From a virus, in IMG/VR virus record IMGVR_UViG_3300020595_000002, positions 1 through 63,228 of that record: a stretch of 63,228 nt of DNA; one strand, 5' to 3'. The notes under the pieces were generated by a model. It ran no database searches. It had not been told where the DNA came from and saw nothing but the letters and a program-made list of their open reading frames with translations. Both the position numbers and the translations under genes were made by a program. Numbering within the stretch: the first letter of the stretch is position 1; each line of letters begins with the position of its first letter. This document shows, one piece after another, positions 3,795 to 63,101 of this stretch.

Positions 3795-3912
3795 AAAAAC
3801 CCCCAAGAGAGGGAGAGGTTGCTTGCATATGAAAGCACAGGTTGAGCGCTGACCTGCCGGATAGCTACCGGACCTCTCCAGTGTTTAAACAATTTACCTA
3901 ACGAGGGACATC

Positions 3913-11373: not shown

Positions 11374-11397
11374 CGATAAATTAACAGGAGAGCGAAT

Positions 11398-11640
11398 ATG
11401 AAGATAAAGAATGGTGTCTGCTCTGGATGTGGCAAAAGAGCGTTTCTGTGTGATTGTGACGAGATCAGCGAGTCACCTCGAACGGTGGGTTATGTGCGCA
11501 TTTACGAAGATGGCCAACCGTGTAAACACCATGGATGTAAAAACCACATATCCCATCCATGTGAAGGTTGCGGAAGGACCGGAGCAAGAGGGGTTGTTGA
11601 TTTACCAAGACGTATTTACCAGAATTGGAAAAGCACATAA
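11398..11640 (+). CDS. Hypothetical zinc-ribbon-like protein
   Basis: CSGCG...CDCD...CKHHGC...CEGCG. Preceded by the conserved taacaggagagcgaatATG context also found at 17398. Confidence 0.6.
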   Translation: MKIKNGVCSGCGKRAFLCDCDEISESPRTVGYVRIYEDGQPCKHHGCKNHISHPCEGCGRTGARGVVDLPRRIYQNWKST

Positions 11641-11657
11641 CCACTTATTAACGAAAC

Positions 11658-11729
11658 AGTGAACCTGCCAGCCACGGACTAGGCCAGAACCACGATGTTG
11701 TTCTGGTCAGGTTACACGGCTGGTTATAC
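11658..11729 (+). repeat. Structured intergenic box, copy 1 (conserved flanks, variable inner hairpin)
   Basis: 5' AGTGAACCTGCCAGCCACGGACT and 3' GGTCAGGTTACACGGCTGGTTATAC are shared with 16218-16291. Inner stem GGCCAGAAC/GTTCTGGTC. Confidence 0.85.
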
Positions 11730-11753
11730 TCAAAATAAAAGGAGTGTGGGGTT

Positions 11754-11981
11754 ATGTTTGTAATGAAGGGAATGACAACAGAATTAATTAACAAATATGA
11801 TTGCTCAGTATGCAAAGAGATGGGAATTGAACACGAGGTGTTGAAGGATGTTCCAGGTCCACCGACTACAAAAAGTTCTTGCTGGGGCGAAGGGCTTCCC
11901 ACAACGAAAAGAAAATGCACTGGCTGTGGTTTTGAAGATGGCCCGTGGGTGAGTGCAAACCTAGTGGGCGGAGGTTGGTAA
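11754..11981 (+). CDS. Hypothetical small protein (cargo of cassette-like insertion 1)
   Basis: SD AAGGAG. 75 aa with CSVC and CTGC pairs. Confidence 0.55.
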   Translation: MFVMKGMTTELINKYDCSVCKEMGIEHEVLKDVPGPPTTKSSCWGEGLPTTKRKCTGCGFEDGPWVSANLVGGGW

Positions 11982-12043
11982 AACATAACAGGTGTATAAG
12001 CCCTGATAATAAACTTAATTAACCATTATAAAGGAAATGTTTT

Positions 12044-12451
12044 ATGATCAACAAAGCCATACTTATTGGAAATCTGGGAGCCGATCCCGAAATACGCTAT
12101 ACTCAGTCAGGAACCCAAGTAACAACCTTCAACGTTGCCACAACTGAGCGTTGGAAAGGGCAAGATGGCCAGATGCAGGAGTCAACTGAATGGCATCGAA
12201 TTGTTGCCTGGAAACGCCTTGCGGAGATTTGTGCAGAATATCTCAGTAAAGGCTCAAAGGTCTACATTGAGGGTGCTATAAAAACCCGTAAATGGCAAGA
12301 CCAGCAAGGAAACGACCGCTTCACCACAGAAATAATTGCTCGAGAAATGAAAATGCTCAGTCCTCGGAATGGTGAGAGTTCTTCTGGTGAAATGCCGGAG
12401 CCGCCGAGTGGTTATGGCACTGGTGGTATGGGTGAAGATGTGCCTTTTTAG
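12044..12451 (+). CDS. ssb: Single-stranded DNA-binding protein
   Basis: OB-fold signature [20 protein letters not shown]...TEWHRIV. Gly-rich tail ending in the acidic tip EDVPF. Confidence 0.95.
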
Positions 12452-12491
12452 CAATAAAACCAATAGTTTATTTTAAGGAGAACCAAAACAA

Positions 12492-13712
12492 GTGCCAGCC
12501 TATTACAATGAGTTCGACCCACAAAAAGCTGAGTGGCTGCGTGAACTCATGAAGCGTGATCTTATAGCGCCTGGTGATGTGGACGAAAGGAGTATAGATG
12601 ATATCGCACCAAATGAGCTTATGGGATACACCCAACATCACTTCTTCGCAGGAATTGGAGTCTGGAGCTACGCACTCAGAAAAGCAGGGTGGCCAGACGA
12701 AAGACCAGTCTGGACAGCTTCATGTCCTTGCCAACCTTTCTCATCGGCAGGCAAAGGAGATGGGTTTGACGACGAGCGGCACTTGTGGCCATCACTCTTC
12801 TGGCTTATCCAACAGCTTCGCCCTGTCCAAGTCTTTGGCGAGCAGGTTGCGAGTAAAGACGGACTTGCTTGGCTCGACCTTGTACAAAATGACCTGGAAA
12901 GTGAGGCGTACACCTGCGGGGCGGTCGATTCCTGCGCTGCGGGGTACGGTGCGCCGATGCTCAGACAGAGATTGTACTGGATGGCTTACCCCGAAAGCAT
13001 CGGACAGCAAATGTCCAGGGAAAAGTCGAGATATGCACTTGAATCACCAAGCAACAATATCAGGTTGGCCGACACCAAGTGCATCAAATGCGGAGAGGGC
13101 TGCGTTCAAGGATATATCAAAGCTAATGACGAGGAAAGAGAAAGGCCAGCAAGCAAATCTACAAGAGGATGTATCGTTGAGTGGTTGGCCGACACCGACT
13201 GCAAATCCAGCAAACGGAGAACCGGAAGCGTTTCTGGAGAGAAAGCGCAGGTCTGTGGAGAGAGGATCGAACATGGGAGTTGCCCTAACGGATATCCAAA
13301 TGGTTGCGAAGATAAGCGGTTGGCCAACACCAACAACCACAGATTCACTCAAGGGCGGAAAAGTCAGCCCACGACAGGGAATGATGGGGTTGAGCGAGAC
13401 AATGTCTCTTCTTCGAAAAAACCAGCAGCCTGCCCGACTAACGGCCACTGGAAAGATACTGACTGGCTCTTCTGCAGAGATGGGCTTTGGAGGCCAACTG
13501 AATCCATCGATAAGCCGTTGGATGATGAGCTTGCCAACAGATTGGGATATCGCAGCATTGGCGGTAGATACTCGCTTGATCCGCTCAAAGAAAAAGCAGA
13601 AAACCGAGTAATGAGGTTAAGAGGCTACGGAGATGCAATTGTCGCAGAACAGGCGATTGCTTTTATCGAGGCAGCTTTAGAAATAGAAAACATCCAAGGA
13701 GAACCAAAATGA
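12492..13712 (+). CDS. DNA (cytosine-5)-methyltransferase
   Basis: Motifs in order: FFAGIG (I), PCQPFS (IV), GEQV (VI), QRLYW (VIII), RLRGYGDAIV (X-like). GTG start with an AAGGAG SD. Confidence 0.85.
   Translation: MPAYYNEFDPQKAEWLRELMKRDLIAPGDVDERSIDDIAPNELMGYTQHHFFAGIGVWSYALRKAGWPDERPVWTASCPCQPFSSAGKGDGFDDERHLWPSLFWLIQQLRPVQVFGEQVASKDGLAWLDLVQNDLESEAYTCGAVDSCAAGYGAPMLRQRLYWMAYPESIGQQMSREKSRYALESPSNNIRLADTKCIKCGEGCVQGYIKANDEERERPASKSTRGCIVEWLADTDCKSSKRRTGSVSGEKAQVCGERIEHGSCPNGYPNGCEDKRLANTNNHRFTQGRKSQPTTGNDGVERDNVSSSKKPAACPTNGHWKDTDWLFCRDGLWRPTESIDKPLDDELANRLGYRSIGGRYSLDPLKEKAENRVMRLRGYGDAIVAEQAIAFIEAALEIENIQGEPK
12598..13611 (+). CDS. Embedded +1-frame ORF (337 codons) inside the C5-MTase gene; coding status unresolved
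   Basis: Open frame with GWLTP, three SGWPTP repeats (13063, 13183, 13318) and GGQLNPSISRWMMSLPTDWD (13489-13548). See findings. Confidence 0.35.
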   Translation: MISHQMSLWDTPNITSSQELESGATHSEKQGGQTKDQSGQLHVLANLSHRQAKEMGLTTSGTCGHHSSGLSNSFALSKSLASRLRVKTDLLGSTLYKMTWKVRRTPAGRSIPALRGTVRRCSDRDCTGWLTPKASDSKCPGKSRDMHLNHQATISGWPTPSASNAERAAFKDISKLMTRKEKGQQANLQEDVSLSGWPTPTANPANGEPEAFLERKRRSVERGSNMGVALTDIQMVAKISGWPTPTTTDSLKGGKVSPRQGMMGLSETMSLLRKNQQPARLTATGKILTGSSAEMGFGGQLNPSISRWMMSLPTDWDIAALAVDTRLIRSKKKQKTE

Positions 13713-14002
13713 TCCACGAATACCACAACACCACCAACCTGAAAGGCGATCAATTAAACCAAGCCAAAAAGAAAGCCATCTCACAAAACGAAAGAGTGCT
13801 CAATTTCTTCCAATCACATGCGCTCGAAGAGTTTACCCCTTGTGAAGTTCAAAAACGCGTAGGAGGGCTGATTACGTCAATTCGCAGGGCAATGTCCGTG
13901 TTGACTAAAAAAGGGCTACTGGAGAAGACAAAACATCAAAAAGAAGGTGTGTATGGAAGCCTTGCCTATACCTGGACCTTGAAGCAGCTGGGCGATAGTT
14001 AA
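13709..14002 (+). CDS. Putative winged-helix DNA-binding protein
   Basis: RVLNFFQSH...TPCEVQKRVGGLITSIRRAMSVLTKKGLLEK looks like a wHTH. Overlaps the MTase stop by 4 nt. Confidence 0.4.
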   Translation: MIHEYHNTTNLKGDQLNQAKKKAISQNERVLNFFQSHALEEFTPCEVQKRVGGLITSIRRAMSVLTKKGLLEKTKHQKEGVYGSLAYTWTLKQLGDS

Positions 14003-14227
14003 AAAATTTTGCCTTATACGCACAGCAAATTGTTGTATTATGATGTAAATTGAGGTAGCATTGTGTTATTCAAGGCTGGCTACCTTGTTAATAAAACGAC
14101 AAAGGAAAACAGAATGACGAAATTTAGAAGCTCTGCGAGGCAGCAACGCCACAGACAAGCAATACGGTCCCTTTGTCCCGTAGTCTGTGCTGCCTCTCAG
14201 GGCTTTTATTTTTTATGGGGTTAGCAA

Positions 14228-15067
14228 TTGAATACGGATATCCGCTTACAAATAAGTTTCAAGGAAAATAGAAAGCGAAAAAGGCTAAACCTGAAACTAG
14301 GCTCTGACGCTGTTCTCGCTTTGGTCGATCTATGGCTTGGCGTTGCCGTGAGCAGGCCATGCGGAAAACTTACCGGATGGGACGAGCTTGACATTGCTCT
14401 TGAGGCAAACTACCCAGGAGATCCAAAGGCTTTTGTTGACGCTCTGCTCGACGTTGGATTCTTGGATAAAGATGAGTCTGGAATATATTCAATGCACGAC
14501 TGGCAAGAGCATAACCCATATGCAGCCGGAAGTAAGGAACGATCCGACAAGGCAAGGTTCAGCAAGCTCAAGTCACATTATCCAAAACTATACGAAACGT
14601 TACATAAAAAAGGAAAACGTTCAATATCATCTAACGACTATCAACGAATCGTTAACGAATACTTAAACGAAAAAGAAGAAACCGTTAACGCCGCGTCTGC
14701 TCCATCTCCATCTCCATCTCCATCTCCATCTCCATCTCCATCTCCAAAAGATAAAAGGTTCAACCCTCTTTCTCTTCGTCCTGATTGGTTTCCTGAAGAA
14801 GATTTTAAAGACGTTGTTGAGCAGAGGAAAAAATCATCAAAGAAAACGTCTGAGACAGAAAGGGCGTATAAGTCTCTTATCAAAGAATTTAAAAAAGCGA
14901 TGGAGAAGGATTTTAGCATTAGCGAATGTGTGGACAAGATGACCAGAAGAGGATGGGTTGGCTTTGATTCTGATTGGATGACAGAAAACAACAATAATCC
15001 GGTAAACAATAAGCGAGGTGGATATGTCGAACCAAGCAGAGGCAAGGACTATCGTGAAGGGCTTTGA
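14228..15067 (+). CDS. Putative replication organizer/initiator with an (SP)7 linker
   Basis: TTG start. Immediately upstream of and overlapping the DnaC-like loader. Two domains joined by PSPSPSPSPSPSPSP. Confidence 0.45.
   Translation: MNTDIRLQISFKENRKRKRLNLKLGSDAVLALVDLWLGVAVSRPCGKLTGWDELDIALEANYPGDPKAFVDALLDVGFLDKDESGIYSMHDWQEHNPYAAGSKERSDKARFSKLKSHYPKLYETLHKKGKRSISSNDYQRIVNEYLNEKEETVNAASAPSPSPSPSPSPSPSPKDKRFNPLSLRPDWFPEEDFKDVVEQRKKSSKKTSETERAYKSLIKEFKKAMEKDFSISECVDKMTRRGWVGFDSDWMTENNNNPVNNKRGGYVEPSRGKDYREGL
14702..14746 (+). repeat. Hexanucleotide microsatellite CCA(TCTCCA)x7 encoding P(SP)7
   Basis: Seven perfect tctcca units, read directly. Confidence 0.95.
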
Positions 15068-15791
15068 AAGCGAAGATCCAAAAAAGAGAATTAACGCTGA
15101 CAAGATATGTGACATACATAACGAACAGTATCGGGAAATAAGTTTCGACAAATACGTTTGCCTTTCTTGCGCTTCAGCAGAGGAAGATAAAGAGAAACTA
15201 CAAAGAAGGGTCAGCCAAGCTGTCCAGTCTCTAAGCCTGCCAACAAAACTAGAAAGGTATTCTTTTGAGAATTACAAAGCCACAGGAAAAAGCACAGTTG
15301 TTCTCGATAAATGCAAGAAATACGTTCAATCGTGGCCAGACGTTGGTGGAATAATAATGCTTGGGGGGGTTGGAACAGGAAAAACTCACCTTGCCGTTTC
15401 CATATGCAAAGACCTTTGCGCTAAAGGGGTTGTTTCTCACTTCACAACGGCAAATAAAATTATCCGCAGTGTTAGAAGTTCATGGGGAAACAATAAGCCC
15501 ATTGATGGATGGGGAGAAGTCTTAACAGAGGAAAAAATAATAAACAGGTTCGTTGGTTATGACCTCTTGGTTATTGACGAGATAGGCACTCAGTACGGTT
15601 CGGAATCAGAACGAATAATCATTAACGAAATAATCAACGACAGGTATGAGATGGATAGGCAAACAGTTTTGATCGGCAATGTGTCTTTTGCTGAAGCAGA
15701 GAAGATACTTGGTTCAAGGGTGATAGATCGTGTCAAAGACAATGGAGAGATATTGTTTTTTGAATGGGACTCTTTCAGGCGGTCAAAATAA
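15024..15791 (+). CDS. DnaC/IstB-like AAA+ helicase loader
   Basis: Walker A GGVGTGKTH and Walker B LLVIDEIG. Start at ATG 15024 (SD GAGG) rather than GTG 15018. Confidence 0.85.
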   Translation: MSNQAEARTIVKGFESEDPKKRINADKICDIHNEQYREISFDKYVCLSCASAEEDKEKLQRRVSQAVQSLSLPTKLERYSFENYKATGKSTVVLDKCKKYVQSWPDVGGIIMLGGVGTGKTHLAVSICKDLCAKGVVSHFTTANKIIRSVRSSWGNNKPIDGWGEVLTEEKIINRFVGYDLLVIDEIGTQYGSESERIIINEIINDRYEMDRQTVLIGNVSFAEAEKILGSRVIDRVKDNGEILFFEWDSFRRSK

Positions 15792-15795
15792 TCCA

Positions 15796-16212
15796 ATGAA
15801 AAAAATAGGCATAGACCCAGGCACAAAAACCGGCCTCGCAATCTGGAACACAGCAACAAACGACTTCGACCTCATCACCACAACCACTATCGTCAAAGCC
15901 ATGGAGATAGTTGCAAACTCCACTGAACCAGATTCAGAGATCTACTTTGAAGATGCCAGAAAACGCACTTGGTTCGGCAAAAGACAGTCACCAGAGAAAG
16001 AAAGAGAGAAGCTACAGGGCGTTGGTTCGGTAAAAAGGGATTGCTCAGTGTGGGAAGAATTTTGCGAACATCTTGGTATCAAATATCACAGAGTTCATCC
16101 TCAGCAGATTAACACCAAGACTGATGCGGCTTATTTTAAACGGCTGACCGGATATAAGGGCAGGACTTCGGAGCATGCTCGTGATGCTGCTATGATTGTT
16201 TTTAAGCGATAA
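15796..16212 (+). CDS. RuvC-like Holliday junction resolvase
   Basis: N-terminal MKKIGIDPGTKTGLAIW (catalytic Asp motif of RNase H-fold resolvases). Start at ATG 15796, after the loader stop. Confidence 0.6.
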   Translation: MKKIGIDPGTKTGLAIWNTATNDFDLITTTTIVKAMEIVANSTEPDSEIYFEDARKRTWFGKRQSPEKEREKLQGVGSVKRDCSVWEEFCEHLGIKYHRVHPQQINTKTDAAYFKRLTGYKGRTSEHARDAAMIVFKR

Positions 16213-16217
16213 CGATT

Positions 16218-16291
16218 AGTGAACCTGCCAGCCACGGACTGACCACGAAGCGCAAAACTTCTTCGTGGTCAGGTTGCACGGCTGGTTATAC
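16218..16291 (+). repeat. Structured intergenic box, copy 2
   Basis: Same 23-nt 5' flank and 25-nt 3' flank (one A/G difference) as 11658-11729. The inner stem is GACCACGAAG/CTTCGTGGTC, a different sequence with the same pairing geometry. Confidence 0.85.
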
Positions 16292-16311
16292 CATAGATTA
16301 AGGTGAAACAT

Positions 16312-16569
16312 ATGATAGAAACACATCCTGTTCAAACCGAAGCAAACGGTAGAAGAGGCAGTGGAAAATCCCCAAAGGTTGTCACCATGAGGGCGTATGA
16401 GGTTTATTGCCACTTGCACAGTGAGCAAGAAGCAATGGTAACAGGAGGGTGTCGAGGAGGTTTCGGGACCGGAGAGCTAATAGCGTTCCTCTATGCACAT
16501 TCCTTCCCAAAAGAAGAATGGAAAGAAAGGGTTTTTGAAGCATTCAACGGAATGGAAAATATGGGTTAG
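16312..16569 (+). CDS. Hypothetical small protein (cargo of cassette-like insertion 2)
   Basis: SD AAGGTGA 5 nt before ATG 16312. The longest ORF starts at GTG 16303. Confidence 0.55.
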   Translation: MIETHPVQTEANGRRGSGKSPKVVTMRAYEVYCHLHSEQEAMVTGGCRGGFGTGELIAFLYAHSFPKEEWKERVFEAFNGMENMG

Positions 16570-16593
16570 GGGTATAACGGTTGAAATAAGCGC

Positions 16594-16620
16594 GCGGACG
16601 GGTTTTCCGTCCGCTTAATT
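16594..16620 (+). terminator. Possible weak terminator hairpin
   Basis: GCGGACGG-gtttt-CCGTCCGC followed by TTAATT. Confidence 0.3.
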
Positions 16621-17389: not shown

Positions 17390-17414
17390 CGTTTAAATTA
17401 ACAGGTGAGCGAAT

Positions 17415-17678
17415 ATGAACATTGAACAAGAAGAAAATTTAACCCATGAAGAACAGGCTGAGTGGGAAAAACTCGCAGAGAAGAGCGAGTCCTCGTTGAA
17501 TGATGGGTTACCTGCCGAAGCCACCAGATGGCAAATAACGGATTGTAGAAAGTGCAAAAGCCATAACGGCTATTTAATAGAGGACGCAAGAGGGGATGCT
17601 GAATTTACCTGCCTTGACTGCGGTTTTTCGTGGTGGGTTGAATGGGTGTTATACAATAAATCAAAGGTGAAATTATGA
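17415..17678 (+). CDS. Hypothetical zinc-ribbon protein
   Basis: CRKC...CLDC. Conserved taacaggtgagcgaatATG initiation context. Confidence 0.6.
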   Translation: MNIEQEENLTHEEQAEWEKLAEKSESSLNDGLPAEATRWQITDCRKCKSHNGYLIEDARGDAEFTCLDCGFSWWVEWVLYNKSKVKL

Positions 17679-37870: not shown

Positions 37871-38431
37871 AGAAAACAACAATATGTATTTTTAATGTTG
37901 TAATCGTTTGGCTGGAGCGTCCTTTGATGGGTTAAAATCCTTTTCAACGACTGAAAGAGACACGTTGAAAGGCCGAGTGATCGGCACTATCTAGCCAGAT
38001 CTTCATAACCGCTTTACGGCTCTGCTCGTCTCTTCGAGCGTTTTGGATCGGGTTTTCAGTGACATTTCCCGTTCCTTGTCGCACCTCCCAGGGGCGGAGC
38101 TAGTTAGCTTTTCTTTTCAGGGGAATCAATGGAAGCAACAGTCTCAAAAAATATCTTGACATCTCTTAACAATTCGGGCTACCATTACCTTGCAACGGCA
38201 AAATCCGTTGTCGGGATTAGCAGCCCGAACCTATCAGGCGGACACACCGCCTTATTTACTGGCGGTTTTTTTGTGTCCGATAATCATGACGTTGCTCTGT
38301 TTGGCGAGTCATGTGGGGAGTCTTCGGACTCGCCGGTTCCTGGTAGCCGGTCTGCTAACCCGCATGGTTCGCCTTTTCTGTTTAGCAGCAGAGAAGGTGA
38401 AAACATTTCATCTTTTACCAGGAGCAAGATC
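37871..38431 (+). ncRNA. Long hairpin-dense untranslated leader or embedded regulatory RNA upstream of the antirepressor
   Basis: About 560 nt with no credible CDS. Hairpins: TTCAACG/CGTTGAA (37943-37969), GCCGA-GTGA-TCGGC (37972-37985), alternative GGCGG/CCGCC/GGCGG+T7 (38237-38272), GAGTC-TTCG-GACTC (38318-38331), CTGCTAA/TTAGCAG (38352-38388). Confidence 0.4.
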
Positions 38432-39172
38432 ATGACCAGACACATCTCTGTAGTTACCCCTGAAACCATTCCTCAGATTCACTTCAAAGATCAGCCCGTA
38501 CTTACTACGGCGTTACTTGCACAGTTGTACGGAACTCGCAAAACGAACATCTATACAAATTACAGAAAAAACAAATCAAGATTCACCGTGGGAAAGCACC
38601 TATTTGCTTTAAACCCCAGCGAAACACAATGTTTCAAGATGTTGCTGAGCGAAACTCAGCAAGCCATTATCCCACCAAGTACCCCAAAACTAACCCTCTG
38701 GACAGAACGAGGCGCAGCCCGTCATGCCAAGATGCTTAACACCGATCAGGCATGGGATGTTTTTGAACGCCTGGAGGAGTGTTACTTCGAGCGGTACCCA
38801 CGAACCGTCAACCTTCCTGTTGCTACTATAAGTCCTGAACAGCAGAGAGAAGTGCAAAAGCTCGTTGCCGCAATAGTCCATGGTGAGGATTCAGGAAAAA
38901 GCGGCTTTGCCAAGGTCTACGGCAAAATAAAGGACAGGTTCAAGGTTCCTTCATACAAAGATGTACCGAAAGAGGAATACAAAAGCCTTGTCTCTTTTAT
39001 CCATGAACTCAGCCCTACGGAAGTGAGAAAAACAGATACCTCTCTTTCACACCTTGACCCTGCTCTTGTCAGTTTGTTGGCCAGATGCAGCAAGAGGCAG
39101 ATAGCGCAAATATCTTCACTGCTTGGCATCATCATGTCTGGAGTGAAGTATAGAATGAAACTTGATTACTAA
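38432..39172 (+). CDS. Antirepressor-like protein, ORF6N-type N-terminal domain
   Basis: FKDQPVLTTALLAQLYGTRKTNIYTNYRKNKSRFTVGKHLFAL matches the ORF6N pattern. SD AGGAG 7 nt before ATG 38432. The 101 upstream in-frame codons look non-protein-like. Confidence 0.7.
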   Translation: MTRHISVVTPETIPQIHFKDQPVLTTALLAQLYGTRKTNIYTNYRKNKSRFTVGKHLFALNPSETQCFKMLLSETQQAIIPPSTPKLTLWTERGAARHAKMLNTDQAWDVFERLEECYFERYPRTVNLPVATISPEQQREVQKLVAAIVHGEDSGKSGFAKVYGKIKDRFKVPSYKDVPKEEYKSLVSFIHELSPTEVRKTDTSLSHLDPALVSLLARCSKRQIAQISSLLGIIMSGVKYRMKLDY

Positions 39173-39488: not shown

Positions 39489-40193
39489 ATGTCGGAGTAC
39501 GGAAAACCCAACACTAAAGCAGTTGAGAAGATTGAGCGACTTCTTGTTTTGCAGTGCTCAATCAGTGGGCTGGCTAAAACTGTAAATGAAATAATCATTG
39601 ACGAAGCACATTCAAGTCCAACTCACCCGCTTGCAGGAAATGACTTTGTGAAGTCTGCCATGCTGGAAGGAATTGACAGTATGACCTCTGAAGCTGATCG
39701 GTTGTTGGAGTGGTTGCGGGATCGGGAGGAAAGCAGAAGCCAAAACCTCAAAGCAGACTGCACAGAACTAGACCTTGACGTGGAAATATCACCGCTTTCA
39801 GAGGAAGAGAAAAACGCCAGGTGCCAAAAAGCGCTTGATATCATGCAGTCATACCTCAGGAAGTATCACCGCCCAGATGCAGATCTCGTGTTCAATAAAA
39901 TCAAACCAACTATAGAACAAACCACAGAAGACCGCATAAAGTCAATTATATACAACGCCTTTCGTCTACAACACTCCAAAGACCTGCAATTCGATTCTCC
40001 GTCAGACATCCGCAAAACCGACACCCTGCAGGACACGCTCAATGGTGACTCAGTTGATTGCATGGAGATGGTTATGCAGTTGGAGGAAGAGTTTGATATC
40101 ACGATACATGATCCAGATACAGAGCAGTTTGTGACTGTTGGAGATGTTATTGATTTTGCAAGGAAACACCTCTCTGAGATCAGGTCTAATTAG
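39489..40193 (+). CDS. Protein with a C-terminal acyl-carrier-protein (ACP) domain
   Basis: The C-terminal about 85 aa align by eye with AcpP: LNGDSVDCMEMVMQLEEEFDITIHDPDTEQFVTVGDVIDF versus [40 protein letters not shown]. The DS(V/L)D serine is present. Confidence 0.75.
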   Translation: MSEYGKPNTKAVEKIERLLVLQCSISGLAKTVNEIIIDEAHSSPTHPLAGNDFVKSAMLEGIDSMTSEADRLLEWLRDREESRSQNLKADCTELDLDVEISPLSEEEKNARCQKALDIMQSYLRKYHRPDADLVFNKIKPTIEQTTEDRIKSIIYNAFRLQHSKDLQFDSPSDIRKTDTLQDTLNGDSVDCMEMVMQLEEEFDITIHDPDTEQFVTVGDVIDFARKHLSEIRSN

Positions 40194-44609: not shown

Positions 44610-47600
44610 ATGGATTATAGCCACGTAGACCTTGATTCTGTCTTTGATGGAATAGATACCGAAAACAATACATCATCTCCCAAGCCTCAGAAGAAACCTG
44701 TACAACAAAAAGTAGACTATAGCGGTGTAAATCTTGATTCTGTCTTTGACGATGTTCTGGGACCGCAGAAAGAAACTTCCTCTCCTGCTTCTCCTTCTGT
44801 CCAGCGACAAGAGCAGCCTGTCTCTCGAAATGTTGATTACAGCAATGTAGACCTGGACTCGGTTTTTGATGATGTGCTTAGTGGTGGATCAAGTACCGAA
44901 AGGGTTTCTCATGACCGTAATCTTCTAAGCGATATCGGCAGTCATGCACTTCGAGGCGGAGCTAAAGCAGTTGAGCAGATTGGCCGGGGGATGCAGGTTG
45001 TTGATGGCGATTACAGCGACGACGAAGGTTTTCTTGATACAACCGGCAAGAAACTTCAGGAGTTTGGCGAGAACGCACCAAAGAAATTTGATTATCTCAA
45101 GCCCGATGCAGCCGAAGGGACCGACAAAGAATCATGGTTCAAGCAAAAGGCCATGGAAGGTGTTGAATCGCTCGGACCTTCAGCCGTTCCCTTTGTTGCC
45201 GCAGCAGGGACAGGAGCCGCAGTTGCAGCAGCCGGAGCTAGCGCACCTATCACCGCACTTGTTGCAGGAGGAAGTGGTCTTGCCGCTCTTCTTGGAACCT
45301 TTGGCGCAGGTACATACCACGAAAAGAGACAGGAATATGATGGTGTCCCAGGTCTTACCGAAGATCAAAAGCACGTTGCCGCTTTAAAACAGGCTGGTAT
45401 TGAATCTGGCGGTGAGCTCGTCAGTGATATTATCCTCATGGGAATTGGCAAACTTGTCCCGGGTGCAGGAAAAGCGGTTTCTGATGTGGCAAAGAATGGA
45501 ATCAAAACCCTTCTTTCCATGTCTCCAAAGCAGTTGGCAAAGCAAGCAGGAAAGGTTTATCTCGCAGAATGGGGAACAGAAACAGGGCAAGCCTATCTTC
45601 AGTCCGGTATCGATGCCGACCTTGGAGTAGGTGAGCGAATGACTATGCTCGAAGCGGCAATTGAAACAGCAATACCCACGGCTGTAATGACCCTTGCCCT
45701 TGGATCAGCGACAGGCGCCTATAACGTTCGTCAAAAGCAAAAACTTTTTAATCAGCTCAACAGCGAAAATGAAGAGATGCGGATTGCCGCAGCGAATAAC
45801 GTATATGGCACCTTAAAGAAGCAGGACAATGAAGTAGCTGAAGCATGGCGTTCTTTCTCTTCAGAAGCTATCTCCAATGGAAGCCCAATAGATGTAAAAG
45901 CTGATTTTCTTAGCAATCCAACCGGAGAGCAAAAGCCGGACGGAACTGTTTCTAAAGCCGTTGACTCTTCTCTTAAATCTCAACCTGGCACAATCTCCAA
46001 AGCCATACCAAACCAAGACCTCTCAGCAGTTGACCGGATGGAGAACGATCTTGCAAGCCAACCCGACAACGACCTCATTTCTTCAATGATAGATGGTGAA
46101 GTTGACATCCAGGACCAGGCAGACGCGAGGAGCAGAAAGAATAAGTTTGCCGACCTCATGAAGAATTATGAGCAGTTTCAGGCAAACAAGACCGACAAGA
46201 AAACCGCCAAGGAATCAGCAGAAGTTTTTCAAGCCAATCCAGAACAGAGAAATCAGGAATACGAGCAGAAAGAAAAAGACCTTAACGAAACCTTCAGAGC
46301 ATACTTTGCCGAACAGGAAAGACAGGCTGAAGAGAATAAGGCCAAACTCCAAGGCGGTAATATTACCGAGCAAGAAGCCAAAGACTTTGAGGACCGCGTA
46401 AATAAAGAACGTCAGCAATGGGCTAAAAAGAATCGCTCAAAGGCCGCTCAGCGAAAGATTGAAAAGGCCAGTACCGAAGTTGAGCAGGAAGAAGATAGCG
46501 CAGAAGAAAGCCTTTCTTCCGTTCCTTTTGAGGTAATGGCGCAGGCGAAGAAAGAAGCTGAAAATACAGTTCGTGAAGATCCGCGTTATCAAGAGATGGC
46601 AGAGGCCAGAAAGCGAAACGGCATAAACATCTATGACGCAAAGAGTTTCTTTTCTCATACCACAATTGCCGCGCTCAATAAAAAATATCCAGGGCTTTTT
46701 CAAGGTGGACAACTGGCCGTTCAAGGTGATGCTCTTCGAGTAGATGAATATGCTCAGGAGAAAGGTTACACATCCGCTGACGAGATGATAAACAACTGGC
46801 TTTCTGCACCATCGATAAAAGCTGAAACGGCGAGGATTGCCAAAGAGAACGTTGCTGAATGGGAACGGTATGAAAACCTTCAGAAAGAAGATGAAAAAGC
46901 GGCCTCAGCTACAACAACCCAGGAGAAAGGGAACACTGTTGCGCCAGGGCCGCAGCAAACCACTTTACCAGAAGTTGAGAAGATTACCAATAAACAATCG
47001 ATTGCTCATGGCCAGGAAGTAGCTACAAACCCAACCGATGCACAGAAGGAAGCGGAAAACTACAAAACAGCCAAAGTCAATGTCGATGGCCTAAAGATCT
47101 CCGTCGAGAATCCTGCAGGTTCAACCAGATCAGGAACAGACCCAAGCGGTAAAGAATGGTCTGTGAAGATGAAAAACGACTATGGCAGAATCCTTGGTTC
47201 AAATGGCTACGACAAAGACCATGTAGATATCTTTGTTTCACCTGGCTACAAAGGCGGAACCAAATACGCCTATGTCGTTAATCAGCATAATAAAGACGGT
47301 TCATTTGATGAGCATAAAACTGTTGTTGGCGTAAGCAGTGAGCAGGAAGCACTCGACCTCTATAACTCCAATTATAAAAAAGGCTGGACAGGTGGCAAGT
47401 CCGTTACCCGTCTACCAATGGCGGCTTTCAAGAAATGGGTAGGCGGGACCGGACCGGCAAAGGGAGAATTGCGCCGGAGCCGGACCGTCGATTTTCAGCA
47501 GGAGAGAAGCAATGATATTCCTCAATCGTCTGGAAATACGGTGGCTAAAACCGAGAATAGGACACCTGTTGCTGATGAAAGAAGCAATACAGCAATCGGA

Positions 47601-50600
47601 AAACCAGCAGTTGAAAGAGGGAGCAACCGAGAAGATAGAAAAGGTGCTCAAGAAAAAACGCTCACTCCTGCCAATATTCCAGCGAAGGAAGCCGAAAAAG
47701 AACAGGATGATCAGGCCGCGCTGACTCCACGGCAAAAGCAATTCTTAGGTTTTCTCAAATCTGATGCAGAAAACAATCGGCCTGCAATGATACCAAACGA
47801 GAAGAATAAGCCTGTTTATGAATCTCTCGTTAAAAAAGGGCATGCCGAAAAAGAGGGTAACGGTTATGTACTCAAGAAAGTGGAAGATACTCAATCTCTT
47901 GGAAATCAAGATATTCAGCAAGGAGTACCGGAGAAAGGAAAGGGAAGTAAAGAGGTTGCTGAAACGGCTGAAACAGGGGAAGGAAATACCTCAGTTGAGC
48001 AGGAGAGAGTTGGAGGTGATCGAGGGGAATCTGTAGACAAAGAGAATCTTGCCACACACGCTGGCGGAAGTAAAACTTACCAAAAAGGACGAACACAAGT
48101 TAAGCCTGGCGAACTTGGAAGAGGAATAAAGACTAATAAGGCGGTACGGGAATATGTAGAAAATATAAAAGAATCTGGCAAAGTTAAGCCAGTAGAAATA
48201 ACCAGTGACGGTTTTATTGTTGATGGCGAACATCGCTATTCCGCAATGGTTAAGATGGGTGTTGACGATATACCTGTTTTCGTTGGTGAGCAGCTTGGAG
48301 CTTCAGGGAGGCTTGTGTCCCCATACTCTGGAATAAGTGTTGATGTTGTTGTCCCTAACGAAACAGCATCAAAACCAGTTGCCGCTCAAAAACCCGAAAA
48401 TGTGAGCGACAAACCTAAGTCTCGCAAAGCCGAGCCTCCCCCTCAGCAGGAATTGCCGGAAGGTAAGGAGGGGGTGACTGATTTTCCATCGCTCACCGAA
48501 GAAGGACGGCGCACAGACGGAAAGCCTATAAAGCCAGGAGATGTATTCAAAACATCAACAGGCAGGACAACTACACCTTATCCAAAATATTCCACCAAGA
48601 GAACTACAAAGCCCGACATTCGCAGGATGAACCAATGGCTTATTGACAATTATAAATCAGAAGCAGAGGCACGCGGAGACGATTTTAATCAGACTCTTGC
48701 AAAAGGGATGGATGCCGGTAATTTTTCAATTGCTGATGCTGAGGGAATTAATCTGTATCTTTTTAGGAAGCAACAAACCAAGCCAGCAGTTAAGGAAAAC
48801 GTACCTGCTACCGACACCAATGTCGACACCAAAATAACCAACCTCAAAGAACTAACCGACTTCACAGACAAATTAAAAAACGGAACCGTAACGCCAGAAC
48901 AACTAAAACAGGCATATGCTTCAGCAGTAGAAAGCAAAGAAGCAATCCGAGCAGAGTTGGCCAAGAAGACCAAAAAGCAATTGGCACCTCTTGCCGGCTA
49001 CATGAGTTCGAGTGATAAAAAATCAGCTTATATAAAATCCGCATACAGTAATACCATGCAGGGCTTTGTTCCTTCAATGTCAATGTCATGGTCCCCATTC
49101 TCCGAAACAGTTGAAGAGGCTGTACAGCGCAAGGTCAATGAAGCGACTCAAGAGCAAATAGACCAGTATGCCAAGGAAATTGCTGAGGTCCGAGAACGCA
49201 ATAAAAAGTATTACGAGAGCAAGATAAAAGGCGTTACCAACCCTGAAACCCTTGAAGAGTTTAAAACCTTCATTCAGATCAAGGGTAAGGACAAGCTCTC
49301 TGAAGAACAATTACAGAGTTATGAAAAGCTCATAGCTGATAAGAATATCGAAACCAGAGAGCAGCAGCAGGAAAGAAAGGCAACCGTTCAAGGCGTGTCT
49401 GGTGATGTTGATTATGAACTTGCCGAAACGCATCATGCCAAAAAAGATATTCCTCTTTATGTAGTCAAGCTCACCGGAGAAAAATTACCGAGAGAGAGAT
49501 TTTCTGAACTGAGAACCAAGGCCAAGCAATTAGGAGGATGGTATTCTCGTTTTCGTGGCAGTGGTGCAATACCTGGATTTCAGTTTGAGTCTGAAGAGTC
49601 ACGGCAGAACTTTGTTGATGTTCTTTCTGGGGAGACGGTTAAAGATACTGAAACTGTTGAGAAGAAACAGGAAGTTAAAACTAAGAAAAAAGTCTCAAGG
49701 TTACGAACTGTAGCCGAACGATTACAAAAAGCAGGAGAAGAGAAACTTAATCAAGACCGACTCACCAATACAGCTAAACGAGCAAGAGAGGCAGGTTACG
49801 CTGAAGCCAGCGCGAGAACCGATATCGCCACAGCAAAAACCATGCTCAACCTTGCCGATGCTATTGACTCAGGTGAAGCTAAGTATTTGAACGGAATATC
49901 CGCAAAAACTCATCTTGATATACTCAACTCATTACTTAATCGTGCCAAGAATGATGCTGATAAGGACATCCCTTACCGTGATCAAGACAGACACAGAGAG
50001 CCAGTTGAGTCAGATGTAAAGTTTGTTAGTTACATTTATCCGTCTGCTGACAAGTCGTCTCTATACAGTTGGGCTGGAAGTCTTGAAAAGGTTCGTGGGG
50101 GAAAGCGTGTTGCTTCAAAAATAGAAAGTATTGGTCGCGCATTGAAAGAAGAGAACCGCTACTATTTCCAAAACGACATCGATCTGCTACGTGATGTTAT
50201 TAAAAAAATTCCAGATGAGTTTAAATATTCTACCGTAGCTGACACTTTAAAGAACTACGACCGTCTCCAAAGAATCGGCCTCACCGACGAAGCAACCTTA
50301 AAAACAGCACTCCGCGAATATATCCAATTCAAAGACACCGGACCAAAGGTAGACAAGGTAAAAGAACTTGAGCGCTCACTCGTTGGTGAAAAGAACGGAG
50401 TAGATTTCTTCCCAACACCAAGAGCAAAAGCGCAGGAGATTGTTGACAGAGCAGATATTCAGCCTGGCATGAAAGTTCTTGAACCTTCAGCCGGAACCGG
50501 AAACCTTGCCGAAGTTATGCGAGAGGCCGGCGCAGAGGTTGAGGTCGCTGAAATCTCACCAAGGCACAGAGAATTGCTTGAGGCCAAAGGTTTTGATATT

Positions 50601-53600
50601 GTCGAACATGACTTCATGGATATGGAGTCAGGCCAGTACGACCGCATAGTAATGAATCCACCTTTCTCCAAGAATCAAGATATTGAGCATGTAGAGAAAG
50701 CGTATGAATTGCTCAAACCTGGCGGCAAACTTGTTTCAATCATGGGCGAAGGTGCTTTCTTCAGACAGGGTAAAACTGAAACTGCATTTCGTGAATGGCT
50801 TGACGAGGTTGGTTATTCCGAGAAACTGCCTGAAGGTTTTTTTACCGACAGAAGAGAGTTGCGTACCACTGGTGTTAATGCGAGAGTGGTTGAGATTGAG
50901 AAACCAGAAGATGTAAGCGAGTCATTAGAAAATGACTTCTCCGCAGGACTTGTAAGAAAACAAGAAATCAGCCTCAGCGAACTTTTCCAGAAAACACAAA
51001 CCGCAACCGACAATCCGCAGGTTCAAAAACTCAATGAATTACTGTACAGCTTTGTACCAGAATCAAAACTTAATATACCAGTTGTAATTGATCCATCTAT
51101 TACCGCGGCAAAGTACAATGCTCAGGCAAACATGATCACTTTGCGAGATCCGAGTATTGCCCCATCAGCATTACATGAAACTGTTCATGCGGTAACTGTC
51201 AGGGAATTATTTCACGAAAAGAACCAAGCTACCAGGAACAGACTTGCTCGAGTAATGAACAAGGTTAAGCGAGAGGTTGTTGCTCAAGGATTAATTTCAA
51301 GGAAAAATCTTATTGCCATTGAGAAAGCAGGAACGAGCAAGAATTATAAAAGTCAGTTTCCTGAAGGATATTTCAGCGGAGTAGATCATATCTCATATGC
51401 GTTTCTTAATGAAAAAGAGTTTCTTGCCCAGGCGTTCAGCAGCCCACAGTTTCAAGACCTGCTTAAAACGGTAAAAGTCAGAGAGAAAGGAAAGCTCATT
51501 AGTGCCTGGGAGTCTTTTGTTCGTGCGTTGATGAAGATTCTTGATATCAAAGGCACTCACGAAACAGCCTTTGGAGAGGTTTTGGAGATTGTTGCAGAGT
51601 TAGCCGCTTCTGAGAATATAGCAGAAGAAACAAAAGGCGAGTCAAGAAACGAAGAATTGGCATTACCAGATATCTCAAATATCACCGCACCATTCACCGG
51701 CATAAAATCAAGAGCAGTAGCCCTTGCAGAAAAGTACATGCCAAAAGACCGCAGGGAAAAGATAGCAACCTACCTGTGGGACCAAAACGCAGCCGTGGCC
51801 AGGGTGCAACGTGAAATAGGCGAGAAGCCCGAATCGCAGGACTATAACCTTATAAGCAGACTATCCGGTAAGAAGATTGCCGATGAAGTAAAACGCTTTA
51901 CTGAAGACACCCTTGATCCTCTTTTGCAGGACATGGCAGATAATAACGTTTCTTTTAACGAAGTTCATGACCTTGCTTGGGCGCAACATGCTCCAGAGCG
52001 AAACTTGCAGATGAAGCGGGTTAATGCCAGAAGATACGTTGATGAGATGCTTGCCAACATGACCGATACGCAGAAGCGCAAATACCAAGACAGACTTGGC
52101 GACCTGCAAGATGAAATGGTCATGGACGATAAGGATATCAACTTCAAGAGAGATGGCTATATCGAGCTTATGGACGAGCTCGTTGAAAGCGTTCCTCAAC
52201 TCATAGCTGAACGAGGCGATTCCAAAACGGCACTAAAAGAAACCGCCAAACTTCAGGAAACAGCAGAGCAGTGGACAGATGTTAAAGACCGACTTTCTGG
52301 AATGACCAACCAGCAGGCTGCAAATAAAATTGCAGCCCTCAAGAACAAAGACAATTTCAAGGATATCCAGAGAGCCACCAATAAACTCAGAGAGATAAAC
52401 AGAAACGCTCTTGAGATGGTCTATCAGGCCGGTGAGTATACCGACGAAGAATATGCGGCCATGAAGTCGGTGTATAAATATCACGTTCCTTTAATGCGTG
52501 AAGGAATGGAGGAAGGAAAGTCAGCTACCGGAAGAATGGGCGTAGGTCCACTTGCCAAACCGTATAAGATTGCGTCAGGGTCCACCAAAGGCGTTGTCAA
52601 TATCTTTGGCAATGTTGTTGATCGCTATCAGTCAGCTATTTCAAGAAAGCACAAACTTGAAGCTGGAAAAGTATTATTCAACATGGTCAAGGAAAACCCA
52701 GATGAAAACCGATGGGCTATCACCAAACTTGACCAGGAACCATATCTCGATAAAGAAGGAAATATCCGCTTCTATCCAGACCACAATCTCGCACCAAATG
52801 AAACAAAGGTGAAGGTTGACGGAGTGGTGCATATAATCAGTGTTCCGCGCGAGAACGAATCAATGATGCGCTGGATGGAAGCATTGAAGCGTGAACCTGT
52901 ACAACTCGGACCCGTTCTTAAAGTAAGCCAGAAGATCAACAGACTTCTTGCTCAAATGAATACTTCCTTTTCTCCAGAGTTTTTAATCACCAACTTTGCA
53001 AGGGATATTCAAACGGCAGGCATCCATCTTGAAGATACTGAAGGAAGCGGCCTGCAGAAAGAAGTTTTGAAAGGAATCAAGCCAGCTATCGCAGGTATCT
53101 ATAAATCGGAAACCGGAAAAGACGCAGGAGAATGGGGAGAGATTTATAAAGACTTTGCCAAGAACGGCGGCAAGATTGGCTGGATGCAGGACTATGAAAC
53201 CGTTGAACAGCTTGCCAAACAACTTGAATCAGAGCTTTCCTATAAGGCAGGAGAGAAACCGAAACGAGCGGCCTTTAGAAAACTGGTAAAGCATGTTGAG
53301 TCCTTAAACGTTTCAGTTGAAAACGGAGTCAGGCTTGCCACCTATAAAGCCCTTATCGAAAACGGTACTTCAAAAAGAAAAGCGGCCAGGACCGCAGCAA
53401 ATCTCACCGTTGATTTTACCAGACACGGTACGATAGGCCCGTTCATGAATAGTTTGTATATGTTTGCGAATGCCGGAATAATCGGGAATATCAGGATGTT
53501 ACGTGCTTTGTCAAGTAGCAGAAAAGTACAAAAAATAGCAGCCGGTATCTTTGGCTTTGGTTTCATGGCGAATATCCTTGGCGCATATGCTGGTGGTGAC

Positions 53601-61713: not shown

Positions 61714-62943
61714 TTAACCGTTTTTTATCTTAACAACCTTATCCGGTAACGAAACTTCCTTCTCCATGGCATCCACAGCCTGCTGCATGGCATTACGAAC
61801 AGGTGAGAGAGTAAGGTGGATATAATGAGCTGTAGCATCCCTTGACTTATGTCCAAGTGCTTTACCTATAATGTCACCGCTGATACCAGAAATAGCTTGC
61901 CAGCTGCCTTGAGTCCTTCTTAGATCGTGTAATCTGTAATCTGTTGGTAGACCGGCGTTTTTTAAGAAAGATTTCCATGCCCTTTTTGGTTCGACAATAT
62001 GACCTGTTTTGCTCTTCTCGGAAGGGAAAACAAAAACCGACTTAGTTCTCTTCTTTCTCTTCTCAAGTATCTCTACGGCACCGTCAATCAAAGGAATTAC
62101 CAACTCTTCCTGATCGTTCTCGCTTTTAACCTCTGGAATTATCCAAAATTTGAGAGAAAGGTCAACGTCCTTCCACTGCATAGAAAGCACGTTTGCTCTT
62201 CTTGCGCCGGTATATAAAAAGATTAAGAGCATGTCTTTTAAGTATTCCGGCGTTTTTTTGTTATCAAGAGTTTTGAAGAAAGCTCGAAGGTGGTCGGATC
62301 TCAAGAAAACCTTTCTTTTCTTTTCGTGGTACTTTGGAATATCCTTACACGGGTTTGGTAGGTCGCTGGCGAATCGGTTGTACATACTTCTGACAATACC
62401 AAAGGCTCTATTAACTGTCGTCTTTGATATGCAATCTCCGCTATTCTTGCCCCTAATCTTCTTCTGGTCAAGAACCTTACGCCGCCATGCCTTGATATCC
62501 GACTCTTTTATGGCAGATATTTTCTTTTTCCCGAGATACTTCTTAATATAAAGATTGTATTTGCTCTCATCTTCCTTCCAGGTTTTCTTATTCTCCTTGG
62601 CATATTCCAGCCACTTTTCAAAAAGCCTATCAAGGGTGAGCTCTAAGTTTGTCTCAGTCAGCCCTCTTTTGATGTCCTTTCCTGCGGCAATTTGCTGTAC
62701 ATGCTCTCTGGCAATATCTCTTGCCGTATTGATACCTATTTTCGGATATCGGCCAATGGTGACAACCACAGGCTTTTTCCTAGAGGCATCCCAAGCATTT
62801 AATCGAAAGCTGATTGTGTTATTTGTGGTAAGGCAGATCTGCAAACCATAGCAAATAGAATCATAGAAATAGATTTTCTTGCCGGTCTGGTTCGTTAATT
62901 TTCTGAGTTTTGAATCGGTAAAATTGAACTTGTTTTCTGACAT
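61714..62943 (-). CDS. int: Tyrosine integrase, P4-type (DUF4102 arm-binding N-domain)
   Basis: N-terminal LRKLTNQTGKKIYFYDS...GRYPKIGINTARDIARE. Catalytic HDLRRT ... GHKSRDATAHYIH. Confidence 0.95.
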   Translation of the reverse strand: MSENKFNFTDSKLRKLTNQTGKKIYFYDSICYGLQICLTTNNTISFRLNAWDASRKKPVVVTIGRYPKIGINTARDIAREHVQQIAAGKDIKRGLTETNLELTLDRLFEKWLEYAKENKKTWKEDESKYNLYIKKYLGKKKISAIKESDIKAWRRKVLDQKKIRGKNSGDCISKTTVNRAFGIVRSMYNRFASDLPNPCKDIPKYHEKKRKVFLRSDHLRAFFKTLDNKKTPEYLKDMLLIFLYTGARRANVLSMQWKDVDLSLKFWIIPEVKSENDQEELVIPLIDGAVEILEKRKKRTKSVFVFPSEKSKTGHIVEPKRAWKSFLKNAGLPTDYRLHDLRRTQGSWQAISGISGDIIGKALGHKSRDATAHYIHLTLSPVRNAMQQAVDAMEKEVSLPDKVVKIKNG

Positions 62944-63017: not shown

Positions 63018-63101
63018 AATAGCAACCATATTTAAAACCGATAAAACCTTATAAAGATAGCATAAAATTACAATGCGGGAATTTCAAGGAAAGCTACAGA
63101 T

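Follow-up and report, generated by a model that had tools for sequence, protein, structure and literature searches.

Two gaps between genes of a marine phage hold copies of the same structured box, and the question that they raise is whether such a box acts as folded RNA or as DNA, and to what end. The DNA is IMG/VR virus record IMGVR_UViG_3300020595_000002, positions 1 to 63,228; we refer to this whole stretch of 63,228 nucleotides (nt) as the window, and all positions are those of the window. A first-pass annotation, made from the letters alone, had described a conserved intergenic box with a compensatory inner stem in two copies, and had read it as a folded RNA or single-stranded DNA (ssDNA). 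Our answer, which we offer tentatively, is that the boxes are intercistronic mRNA processing or stability hairpins of the kind that RNase III recognises in phage T7. What we infer is a single transcript across the region, the action of a nuclease there (RNase III or another), and all of the consequences for expression considered below.

Two copies of one box

Box 1 occupies 11658-11729 on the + strand (11649-11729 with an extension described below), between the Cys-rich open reading frame (ORF) ORF80, whose stop codon is at 11638-11640, and ORF75. Box 2 occupies 16218-16291, also on the + strand (16210-16291 with the extension), between a RuvC-like resolvase gene and ORF85. The 23-nt 5' flank, AGTGAACCTGCCAGCCACGGACT, has exactly two occurrences, at 11658-11680 and 16218-16240, both on the + strand and identical to each other. 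The 25-nt 3' flank, GGTCAGGTTRCACGGCTGGTTATAC, is likewise found exactly twice, at 11705-11729 and 16267-16291, with one A/G difference, so that both flanks are as the first-pass annotation described them and 47/48 flank positions are the same in the two boxes. No other site in the window matches either flank at up to three mismatches, and shuffled sequences lead us to expect none; nor did looser sub-motif scans and an nhmmer profile of both boxes detect a third copy in the 63 kb. Similarity reaches ~9 nt further 5' (TAACGA..., from 11649 and 16210), where the TAA of box 2 (16210-16212) is the stop codon of the RuvC-like gene.

Box 1 begins 17 nt past the ORF80 stop codon and ends 9 nt before the Shine-Dalgarno sequence (SD) of ORF75 (AAGGAG 11739-11744, ATG 11754, + strand), while box 2 begins 5 nt past the RuvC-like stop codon and ends 8 nt before that of ORF85 (AAGGTG 16300-16305, ATG 16312, + strand); the ATG lies 20-24 nt from the end of the box. 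The first-pass annotation had placed the boxes 10-25 nt upstream of the SDs of unrelated small ORFs. ORF75 and ORF85 are indeed unrelated to each other, but the gap to the SD is 8-9 nt. Each box is a discrete insert of ~80 nt, placed after a stop codon and ahead of the next SD, within an otherwise tightly packed operon read in one direction. Both belong to the same rightward early operon, where they stand 4.5 kb apart, bracket a replication module, and lie 10.5 and 15 kb from the CI/Cro region.

Two observations were made in passing on the copies. Box 2 contains the break points of two independent metagenome assemblies, one (L106) starting at 16240 and the other (L110) at 16247, and one of these breaks falls exactly on the boundary between 5' flank and hairpin; they could be a repeat-induced branch in the assembly graph, a drop in coverage at the hairpin or a variant junction. 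There is also a second duplicated intergenic segment, TAAATTAACAGGWGAGCGAATATGAA, identical at 27/29 nt between 11377-11405 and 17394-17422 (+ strand). It covers the stop codon, ribosome-binding site and start ahead of two unrelated small Cys-rich ORFs, and one copy precedes box 1 by 250 nt while the other follows box 2 by 1.1 kb.

Predicted fold of the boxes

The + strand RNA of each box is predicted to fold into a single long, interrupted hairpin of ~20-22 bp in all, made up of a 7-bp lower stem, an asymmetric internal loop of ~5 x 7 nt, and an upper stem of 12-13 bp. The lower stem pairs GCCAGCC with GGCUGGU, at pair probabilities of 0.94 or more. In box 1 these are GCCAGCC at 11667-11673 and GGCTGGT at 11718-11724 (pair probability 0.94-1.0), and in box 2 the same words at 16227-16233 and 16280-16286. 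The upper stem-loop of box 1 (11679-11710) consists of CU, a bulged A and GGCCAGAAC (11679-11690), a loop at 11691-11699, and GUUCUGGUC followed by AG (11700-11710). That of box 2 has CUGACCACGAAG at 16239-16250, a loop at 16251-16260 and CUUCGUGGUCAG at 16261-16272, giving 12 Watson-Crick pairs. The inner hairpins proper are GGCCAGAAC-9 nt-GTTCTGGTC in box 1 and GACCACGAAG-10 nt-CTTCGTGGTC in box 2; the CU...AG of the flanks lengthens them to 11 pairs plus the bulged A in box 1 and to 12 pairs in box 2, and GGTC is shared by the 3' strand of the hairpin and the 3' flank. AU-rich single-stranded stretches follow both hairpins.

The predicted folding energies of the + strand RNAs are -31.1 and -36.6 kcal/mol (z -4.3 and -5.5), with 0/200 shuffles as good. 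The - strand RNAs are less exceptional (z -1.6 and -3.7), and neither strand of box 1 folds remarkably well as ssDNA (z -1.4 and -2.1). Since the + strand fold stands out, and since one difference between the boxes exchanges a G.U for an A-U pair, RNA of the sense strand is mildly favoured. To a modest degree, then, a folded + strand transcript appears to be the best-fitting reading of what the box is.

When a longer stretch is folded, the SD of ORF75 is sequestered at box 1, the flanks pairing with the SD and the start region, while the SD of ORF85 stays free at box 2. The first-pass annotation had proposed an effect of the box on translation of the downstream ORF; masking of the SD in box 1 only makes this link inconsistent, and we discard SD masking as a property common to both boxes.

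Differences between the copies preserve pairing

The stem differences that follow were read from a structure-aware alignment made by hand; MAFFT misaligns the inner stem of the two boxes. In this alignment 16/27 columns of the inner hairpins are identical, and the hairpins are homologous. The earlier impression of hairpins that differ in sequence yet pair equally well was right about the pairing, but they are not unrelated sequences. Divergence is concentrated in the upper hairpin, where 11/27 columns differ against 1/48 in the flanks (Fisher p = 2.5e-5). There are three differences in the stem: one G.U to A-U change, one C-G pair inserted on both strands, and one terminal pair that is flipped (C-G to G-C or the reverse). 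Two of these events are fully compensated and one is half-compensated, and all keep pairing; the chance that three random stem substitutions would keep every pair is ~0.02. The exchange between G.U and A-U is neutral on the + strand only.

We found 18 metagenomic contig segments from several samples that are collinear with the window and 99.5-100% identical to it over the compared stretches. Both boxes are identical in all of these copies of the phage, and polymorphism gives no information. The covariation therefore rests on two sequences and 2-3 events, and as the flanks are invariant there is none for the lower stem or for the crossing helix described next. What survives of the claim that covariation supports folded RNA or ssDNA is that the changes preserve pairing and that the + strand RNA fold is strong, but the comparison comprises only the two sequences and those few events.

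A second, competing pairing of the flanks

The first-pass annotation had pointed to two crossing pairings between the flanks, implying either a pseudoknot or alternative states. Both pairings are real, and the crossing one is longer than first described, comprising 9 bp between GUG+AACCUG and CAGGUU+(R bulge)+CAC. In box 1 its 5' strand, GUGAACCUG, is at 11659-11667 and its partner, CAGGUU-A-CAC, at 11708-11717; in box 2 the strands are at 16219-16227 and 16270-16279 (+ strand in both). Compared with shuffled flanks, the two flank helices have p values of ~0.008 and 0.009, and 0.0005 jointly. They are not, however, formed together. Crossing helix and nested fold are mutually exclusive, the former competing with the base of the inner stem for CAG, which is used in both, and enforcing it costs ~10 kcal/mol (-20.8 and -24.2 against -31.1 and -35.0 for the nested fold). 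In their full forms the crossing helix and the lower stem abut, with 0-nt loops on both sides.

A full pseudoknot is implausible because the helices abut, because the crossing helix competes with the inner stem, and because of the ~10 kcal/mol penalty; an H-type pseudoknot, in which both helices stand at once with loops that span the grooves, is rejected on the 0-nt loops and the CAG conflict. A trimmed pseudoknot may conceivably form, and the crossing helix is possible as an alternative or transient state.

Words that recall the flanks are also seen at 3795-3912 (+ strand), between the SbcC-like and RecT genes, where a three-way junction is predicted (z -2.1) and the sequence contains CAGGUU...GACCUGCC. 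This is possibly another cis element of the same operon.

Relatives of the box

An Rfam scan of the kind that the first-pass annotation proposed assigned the boxes to no family at the gathering score, and neither did a cmscan over 11400-16600 at E <= 10. Exact or gapped scans of IMG/VR with four patterns yielded chance matches only, in high-GC coding sequence. One pattern had 32 matches in the JGI metagenomes, all of them chance, and two patterns gave chance matches only in the 185,579 representative genomes of GTDB. Fuzzy flank searches (up to 5-7 mismatches) and the nhmmer profile, run over 1.6 Mb of retrieved loci, recovered the same phage only. Thus the further homologues with covariation on which the first-pass annotation had made its claim depend did not appear in IMG/VR, the JGI metagenomes, the GTDB genomes or the homologous loci, and comparative confirmation of a folded RNA is impossible with the present data.

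The genes around the boxes do have relatives. Homologues of the RuvC-like protein reach at most 59% identity (loci L015 and L148-L151), and those of the replication initiator at most 64% (L186); ORF75 has one relative, at 53%. ORF85 (16312-16569, + strand) belongs to a very widespread and strongly conserved family of small proteins (54-78% identity), which occurs in phages and prophages of diverse Proteobacteria (Desulfobacteraceae, Cupriavidus and Pseudomonas in record names) and is in most cases translationally coupled to the gene upstream. Neither the box nor an equivalent intergenic hairpin was detected at the loci of RuvC-like, replication-initiator or ORF75 homologues, or at those of ORF85 homologues, some 30 in number. 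Because these loci are without it, we regard the box as a lineage-specific insert, rather than a conserved leader of either downstream gene family.

A proposed processing or stability hairpin

Our proposal that the boxes punctuate the early transcript is made because their anatomy matches T7-type RNase III sites best among known elements. Each box occupies an intercistronic gap, with a stop codon before it and an SD after it, within a string of co-directional genes that is probably transcribed as one unit. The 7 and 12-13 bp of the two stems, if stacked as predicted, make about two helical turns of interrupted double-stranded RNA, a size typical of RNase III substrates. Lower stem and internal loop do not vary, while the upper stem and loop have diverged with pairing-preserving changes only. 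A terminator or promoter cassette is unlikely, as the boxes show neither a T-run nor a sigma-70-like promoter.

Under this proposal the boxes would be cis-acting RNA elements in the long rightward early transcript. A double-strand-specific endonuclease would read the conserved lower stem and internal loop, as T7 uses host RNase III, and the upper stem would need only to remain paired; the cutting enzyme could equally be a nuclease other than RNase III. Cuts at both boxes would give three mRNA segments, carrying the recombination and methylase genes, the replication module from ORF75 to RuvC, and ORF85 onward. Each upstream segment would keep a hairpin as its 3' end, which would shield it against 3' exonucleases, each downstream one would start ~10-30 nt ahead of the next SD, and the three blocks would gain uncoupled stability and translation.

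Several points weigh against this proposal. The flanks are more strictly conserved (23 and 24/25 nt) than a reader of helix shape such as RNase III needs. The second unusual complementarity of the flanks (GUGAACCUG with CAGGUU-R-CAC) is unexplained by a simple processing-site model. The compensated changes could have come from templated (quasi-palindrome) mutation of DNA, without selection on RNA. The evidence comes from just two copies, both of a single clonal phage population. Finally, near the orthologous genes of other phages no homologue of the box is seen.

Alternative explanations

The strict conservation of the flanks would be natural if the box were an RNA operator, an explanation that we consider unlikely. 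A sequence-specific RNA-binding protein, either encoded by the phage (one of the many small Cys-rich zinc-ribbon proteins from nearby genes, for example) or a host factor, would in this case control translation or stability of ORF75-SSB... and ORF85..., reading the invariant internal loop and lower stem. Analogues are known from T4, in the RegA and gp32 operators, and from Mu, where Com acts on mom. Invariant flanks are typical of sequence-specific recognition, with the upper stem constrained in structure only, and the boxes stand 8-9 nt from the SDs. Small CxxC proteins abound nearby (ORF116, ORF80, ORF75 and ORF87, the last with a Zn-ribbon Pfam match), yet no RNA-binding domain was identified in the neighbouring ORFs. 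The pairing of the box 1 flanks with the SD and start region of ORF75 suits an operator as well, but sequestration is confined to box 1; furthermore the downstream genes are unrelated, with nothing pointing to co-regulation, and there are no homologues in which to test the idea.

The second alternative places the function, present or former, in the DNA, and we judge it rather improbable. The boxes would be direct repeats acting as a recombination linker, a module boundary or a small mobile insert around the 4.5-kb replication module, akin to the PeSL cassettes of T4-like phages; the hairpin would be a palindrome kept by templated repair, and the motif GTRnAACCWG(n)CC, with one forward and two reverse copies, could bind a protein. 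The direct orientation of the boxes is consistent with this, as are the exact bracketing of ORF75 to RuvC, the three occurrences of the flank motif per box in inverted arrangement, and flank complementarities that both exceed chance. So too are the 11377-11405/17394-17422 duplicate, which demonstrates that short intergenic sequences have been copied within this genome, the ORF85 homologues in other phages, beside which the absence of the box makes it behave like an insert, and the two assemblies that break inside box 2. The PeSLs are a precedent for excision and shuffling mediated by conserved stem-loop cassettes between genes (PMC2839356). A linker for exchange, however, should be present in other phages, and none was detected in IMG/VR, the JGI metagenomes or the GTDB genomes; the module is kept in all metagenomic variants. 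There is no target-site duplication, the terminal inverted repeats are weak, and no transposase or dedicated recombinase is encoded nearby, the only integrase being the one at attP. Gene conversion would have homogenised the centre of the box along with its flanks, box 1 has no exceptional fold as ssDNA (z -1.4 and -2.1), and the change between G.U and A-U fits RNA better.

A signal for transcription elongation, which we consider very unlikely, is suggested by the context: a temperate phage with a lambda-like switch and a very long rightward unit, of a sort that commonly needs antitermination. The boxes might be a put- or nut-like RNA, modifying RNA polymerase so that it passes terminators within the unit of >35 kb, or a pause or attenuator hairpin without a U-tract, switched by the alternative helix. 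They are structured RNAs with two mutually exclusive helices, both beyond chance, and there are two per genome, as with putL/putR and nutL/nutR. Against this, both copies lie in one operon, 10.5 and 15 kb from the promoter region on the Cro side; each is a single long hairpin rather than the two adjacent stem-loops of put RNA; and there is no boxA-like sequence, no small boxB-type hairpin and no U-run for termination. The alternative fold is ~10 kcal/mol less stable, and no N- or Q-like protein was identified.

We give as little credence to the boxes as a new, lineage-specific class of bistable cis-regulatory RNA. Here the flanks would form either the lower stem or the 9-bp helix of GUGAACCUG with CAGGUU-R-CAC, and a phage factor (for example a neighbouring small zinc-ribbon protein) or co-transcriptional folding would choose the state, and thereby gate the whole replication module, at the level of either processing or translation. 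What probability remains falls to a non-functional duplication or to something not yet conceived.

The other candidates can be dismissed briefly. A Rho-independent terminator is rejected, the sequence after the hairpin being TATACTCAAAAT in box 1 and TATACCATAGAT in box 2; neither has a T-run, which bears out the first-pass annotation, and a terminator scan lists neither box. A sigma-70-type scan and inspection by eye revealed no sigma-70, sigma-54 or extracytoplasmic function (ECF) promoter at the boxes. A hairpin promoter of the N4 type, read by a giant virion RNA polymerase, is removed because the 3310-aa ORF of this phage is DarB-like, with a methylase, and not an N4-type virion polymerase. 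Duplex energies between the boxes and the phage's isrK-like or C4-like RNAs are not unusual, so the boxes are not taken to be their targets. A repressor operator or 'stoperator' is rejected because the flank motif is found neither between the CI and Cro genes nor anywhere else outside the boxes, and a tRNA-like element on the empty result of ARAGORN. A miniature inverted-repeat transposable element or similar small mobile insert finds no target-site duplication, only partial terminal inverted repeats (GTGAACC / GGTTATAC) and no copies in any collection scanned, and a self-cleaving ribozyme or riboswitch has no Rfam cmscan match at the boxes at E <= 10.

The phage and its gene order

The window is from a new, uncultured, temperate marine phage. 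Its first 127 nt are repeated identically at its end (1-127 and 63102-63228), and we therefore take it to be a phage contig of 63,101 bp that either was assembled as a circle or is terminally redundant. Several marine metagenome assemblies (SOLA, KRUG, JGI 3300020182 and Logan runs) also contain this phage, as contigs of 63,156-63,242 bp. Searches by megablast and blastn against 50,697 phage records gave 0 matches to cultured relatives; TerL is at most 42% identical to that of any cultured phage, and the O-like replication initiator has no tblastn match among cultured phages.

An integrase with an arm-binding domain (P4-type; 61714-62943, - strand) sits at attP and is the only integrase in the window. 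Adjoining it, at 63100-63160 (= 1-57), is the 3' part of a tRNA gene, seen as an Rfam tRNA match cut at the 5' end; read by eye, its anticodon loop CUUCUAA would be that of Arg-UCU, and the fragment is likely to be the attP core and a clue to the identity of the host. The integrase and a CI-like helix-turn-helix protein (588-1061) are encoded on the - strand and all other genes on the + strand, starting with a Cro-like protein (1147-1434). Downstream of this lambda-like CI-like/Cro-like switch extends a putative co-directional rightward transcription unit of >35 kb, with genes for an SbcC-like protein, RecT and a hydrolase, then methylases, then the replication block bracketed by the boxes.

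This block (11754-16212, + strand) has seven genes, from ORF75 through the RuvC-like resolvase: ORF75, SSB (12044-12451), a C5 DNA methylase (12492-13712), ORF97, which lies between the methylase and the next gene, the O-like replication initiator (14228-15067), a DnaC-like loader (15018-15791) and the RuvC-like resolvase (15730-16212), all on the + strand. Inside the initiator gene are eight tandem CTCCAT units (14700-14746, + strand), which could be a Pro/Ser linker or origin iterons. Box 2 is followed by ORF85, a DUF1643 protein, small zinc-ribbon ORFs, the terminase and the structural genes. Just after ORF85, at 16592-16614, there is a perfect 8-bp GC-rich hairpin, GCGGACGG-GUUUU-CCGUCCGC, which a terminator scan finds terminator-like on the - strand only.

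Several features were noted further along the window. An isrK-like RNA (38192-38272) and a C4-type antisense RNA (38297-38379), both on the + strand and above their Rfam gathering scores, lie within or upstream of the ORF at 38129-39172, at the 5' end of an ORF6N/ORF6C antirepressor-like gene; the arrangement at 38192-38379 resembles a P1-type immunity-I (c4/ant) module, here carried by a marine phage. An ORF of the late region (39489-40193, + strand) has a phosphopantetheine-attachment (acyl-carrier-like) domain. The 3310-aa ORF (44610-54542, + strand) has DarB-like antirestriction, DNA methyltransferase, lysozyme-like and ParB-like segments, and three 35-nt repeats, at 44613, 44715 and 44835, in its first 260 nt.

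Comparison with known systems

Among known elements, the attC sites of integrons are similar to the boxes in length (72-74 nt) and in having conserved ends around a variable, structurally conserved centre; the ends of the boxes resemble R'' RYYYAAC (AGTGAAC, 5/7) and R' GTTRRRY (GTTATAC, 6/7). We nevertheless reject this identity, given that the R''/R' matches are imperfect and complementary only in AAC/GTT, that no IntI-type integrase is encoded, and that seven genes lie between the copies, not one per cassette. HK022 put and lambda nut also come as two copies per temperate phage genome, as structured cis-acting RNA with conserved sequence and compensated stems. They differ from the boxes in form, with two stem-loops (put) or boxA and a 15-nt boxB (nut) against one long hairpin, and in position, being promoter-proximal in two operons where the boxes lie deep inside one. 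A put RNA, with its two adjacent promoter-proximal stem-loops, is thus rejected for a single extended hairpin of which both copies are in one operon. Stabilisers of the repetitive extragenic palindrome (REP) and bacterial interspersed mosaic element (BIME) kind, such as that of malE-malF, share with the boxes a stable intercistronic hairpin without a U-tract, which could hold up 3' exonucleases and make the genes of an operon differ in expression; REPs, however, are spread over host genomes in hundreds of copies, while the box is in 0/185,579 representative genomes.

The PeSL cassettes of T4-like phages are composite intergenic units that extend from the stop codon of one gene to the SD of the following one, carry a stem-loop, flank genes or modules and are possible patches of homology for shuffling (PMC2839356). 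The boxes are similarly conserved intergenic stem-loop units between stop codon and next SD, and flank a module. In contrast to PeSLs, which combine a strong sigma-70-like promoter with a terminator-like stem-loop and exist in dozens of copies in hyperplastic regions, the boxes lack promoter-like hexamers and a T-run, and their two copies surround core replication genes. Two grounds lead us to reject the PeSL assignment: there is no promoter at the boxes, the sequence offering TATACT/TATACC without an acceptable -35 at 16-18 nt, and in place of many recombining copies there are two, with all metagenomic variants collinear.

The closest resemblance is to the RNase III sites of T7 and T3. We folded the five T7 early sites R0.3, R0.5, R1, R1.1 and R1.3, at positions that we take to be those of Dunn & Studier 1983, and obtained upper stems that vary with compensation above a conserved base, ACUCAAGG...CCUUUAUGAUU. 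Like the boxes, the T7/T3 sites exist in several intercistronic copies in polycistronic early mRNA, have no T-run, and form hairpins in which an asymmetric internal loop separates a lower from an upper stem, the base and internal loop being conserved in sequence and the upper stem varying with compensating changes; T7 carries 10 RNase III sites, intergenic in polycistronic mRNA (PMC9135205). The boxes are nonetheless larger: their stems have 7 and 12-13 bp and their loop 9-10 nt, where the T7 sites have ~5 and 10 bp and a loop of 4-5 nt. They have only two copies, an extra competing flank helix, and no sequence similarity to T7 sites (compared by eye) or to any Rfam family. Their cleavage by RNase III is putative, and this phage is temperate and unrelated to T7.

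The early mRNA of the phage SP82 reportedly contains sequence-conserved hairpins, repeated and cut by RNase III, to which we liken the boxes by description as sequence-conserved hairpins repeated in phage early mRNA. They belong to another host group and have no known sequence relation to the boxes. That SP82, a Bacillus phage, has Bs-RNase III sites in its early mRNA is stated, citing Panganiban & Whiteley 1983, in PMC4838370.

With no detectable relatives, and two copies in one uncultured phage, the boxes are of limited practical value; they are a clean, well-delimited candidate with ordinary precedents and no breadth. By analogy we tentatively suggest that the box, which shares no sequence with known families, works like a processing hairpin of the T7/SP82 type. 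If this is true, a temperate, non-T7-like marine phage cuts its early polycistronic mRNA into functional blocks by sequence-conserved hairpins and frees its replication module as an mRNA of its own, and a strategy known mainly from T7, T3 and SP82 would be extended.

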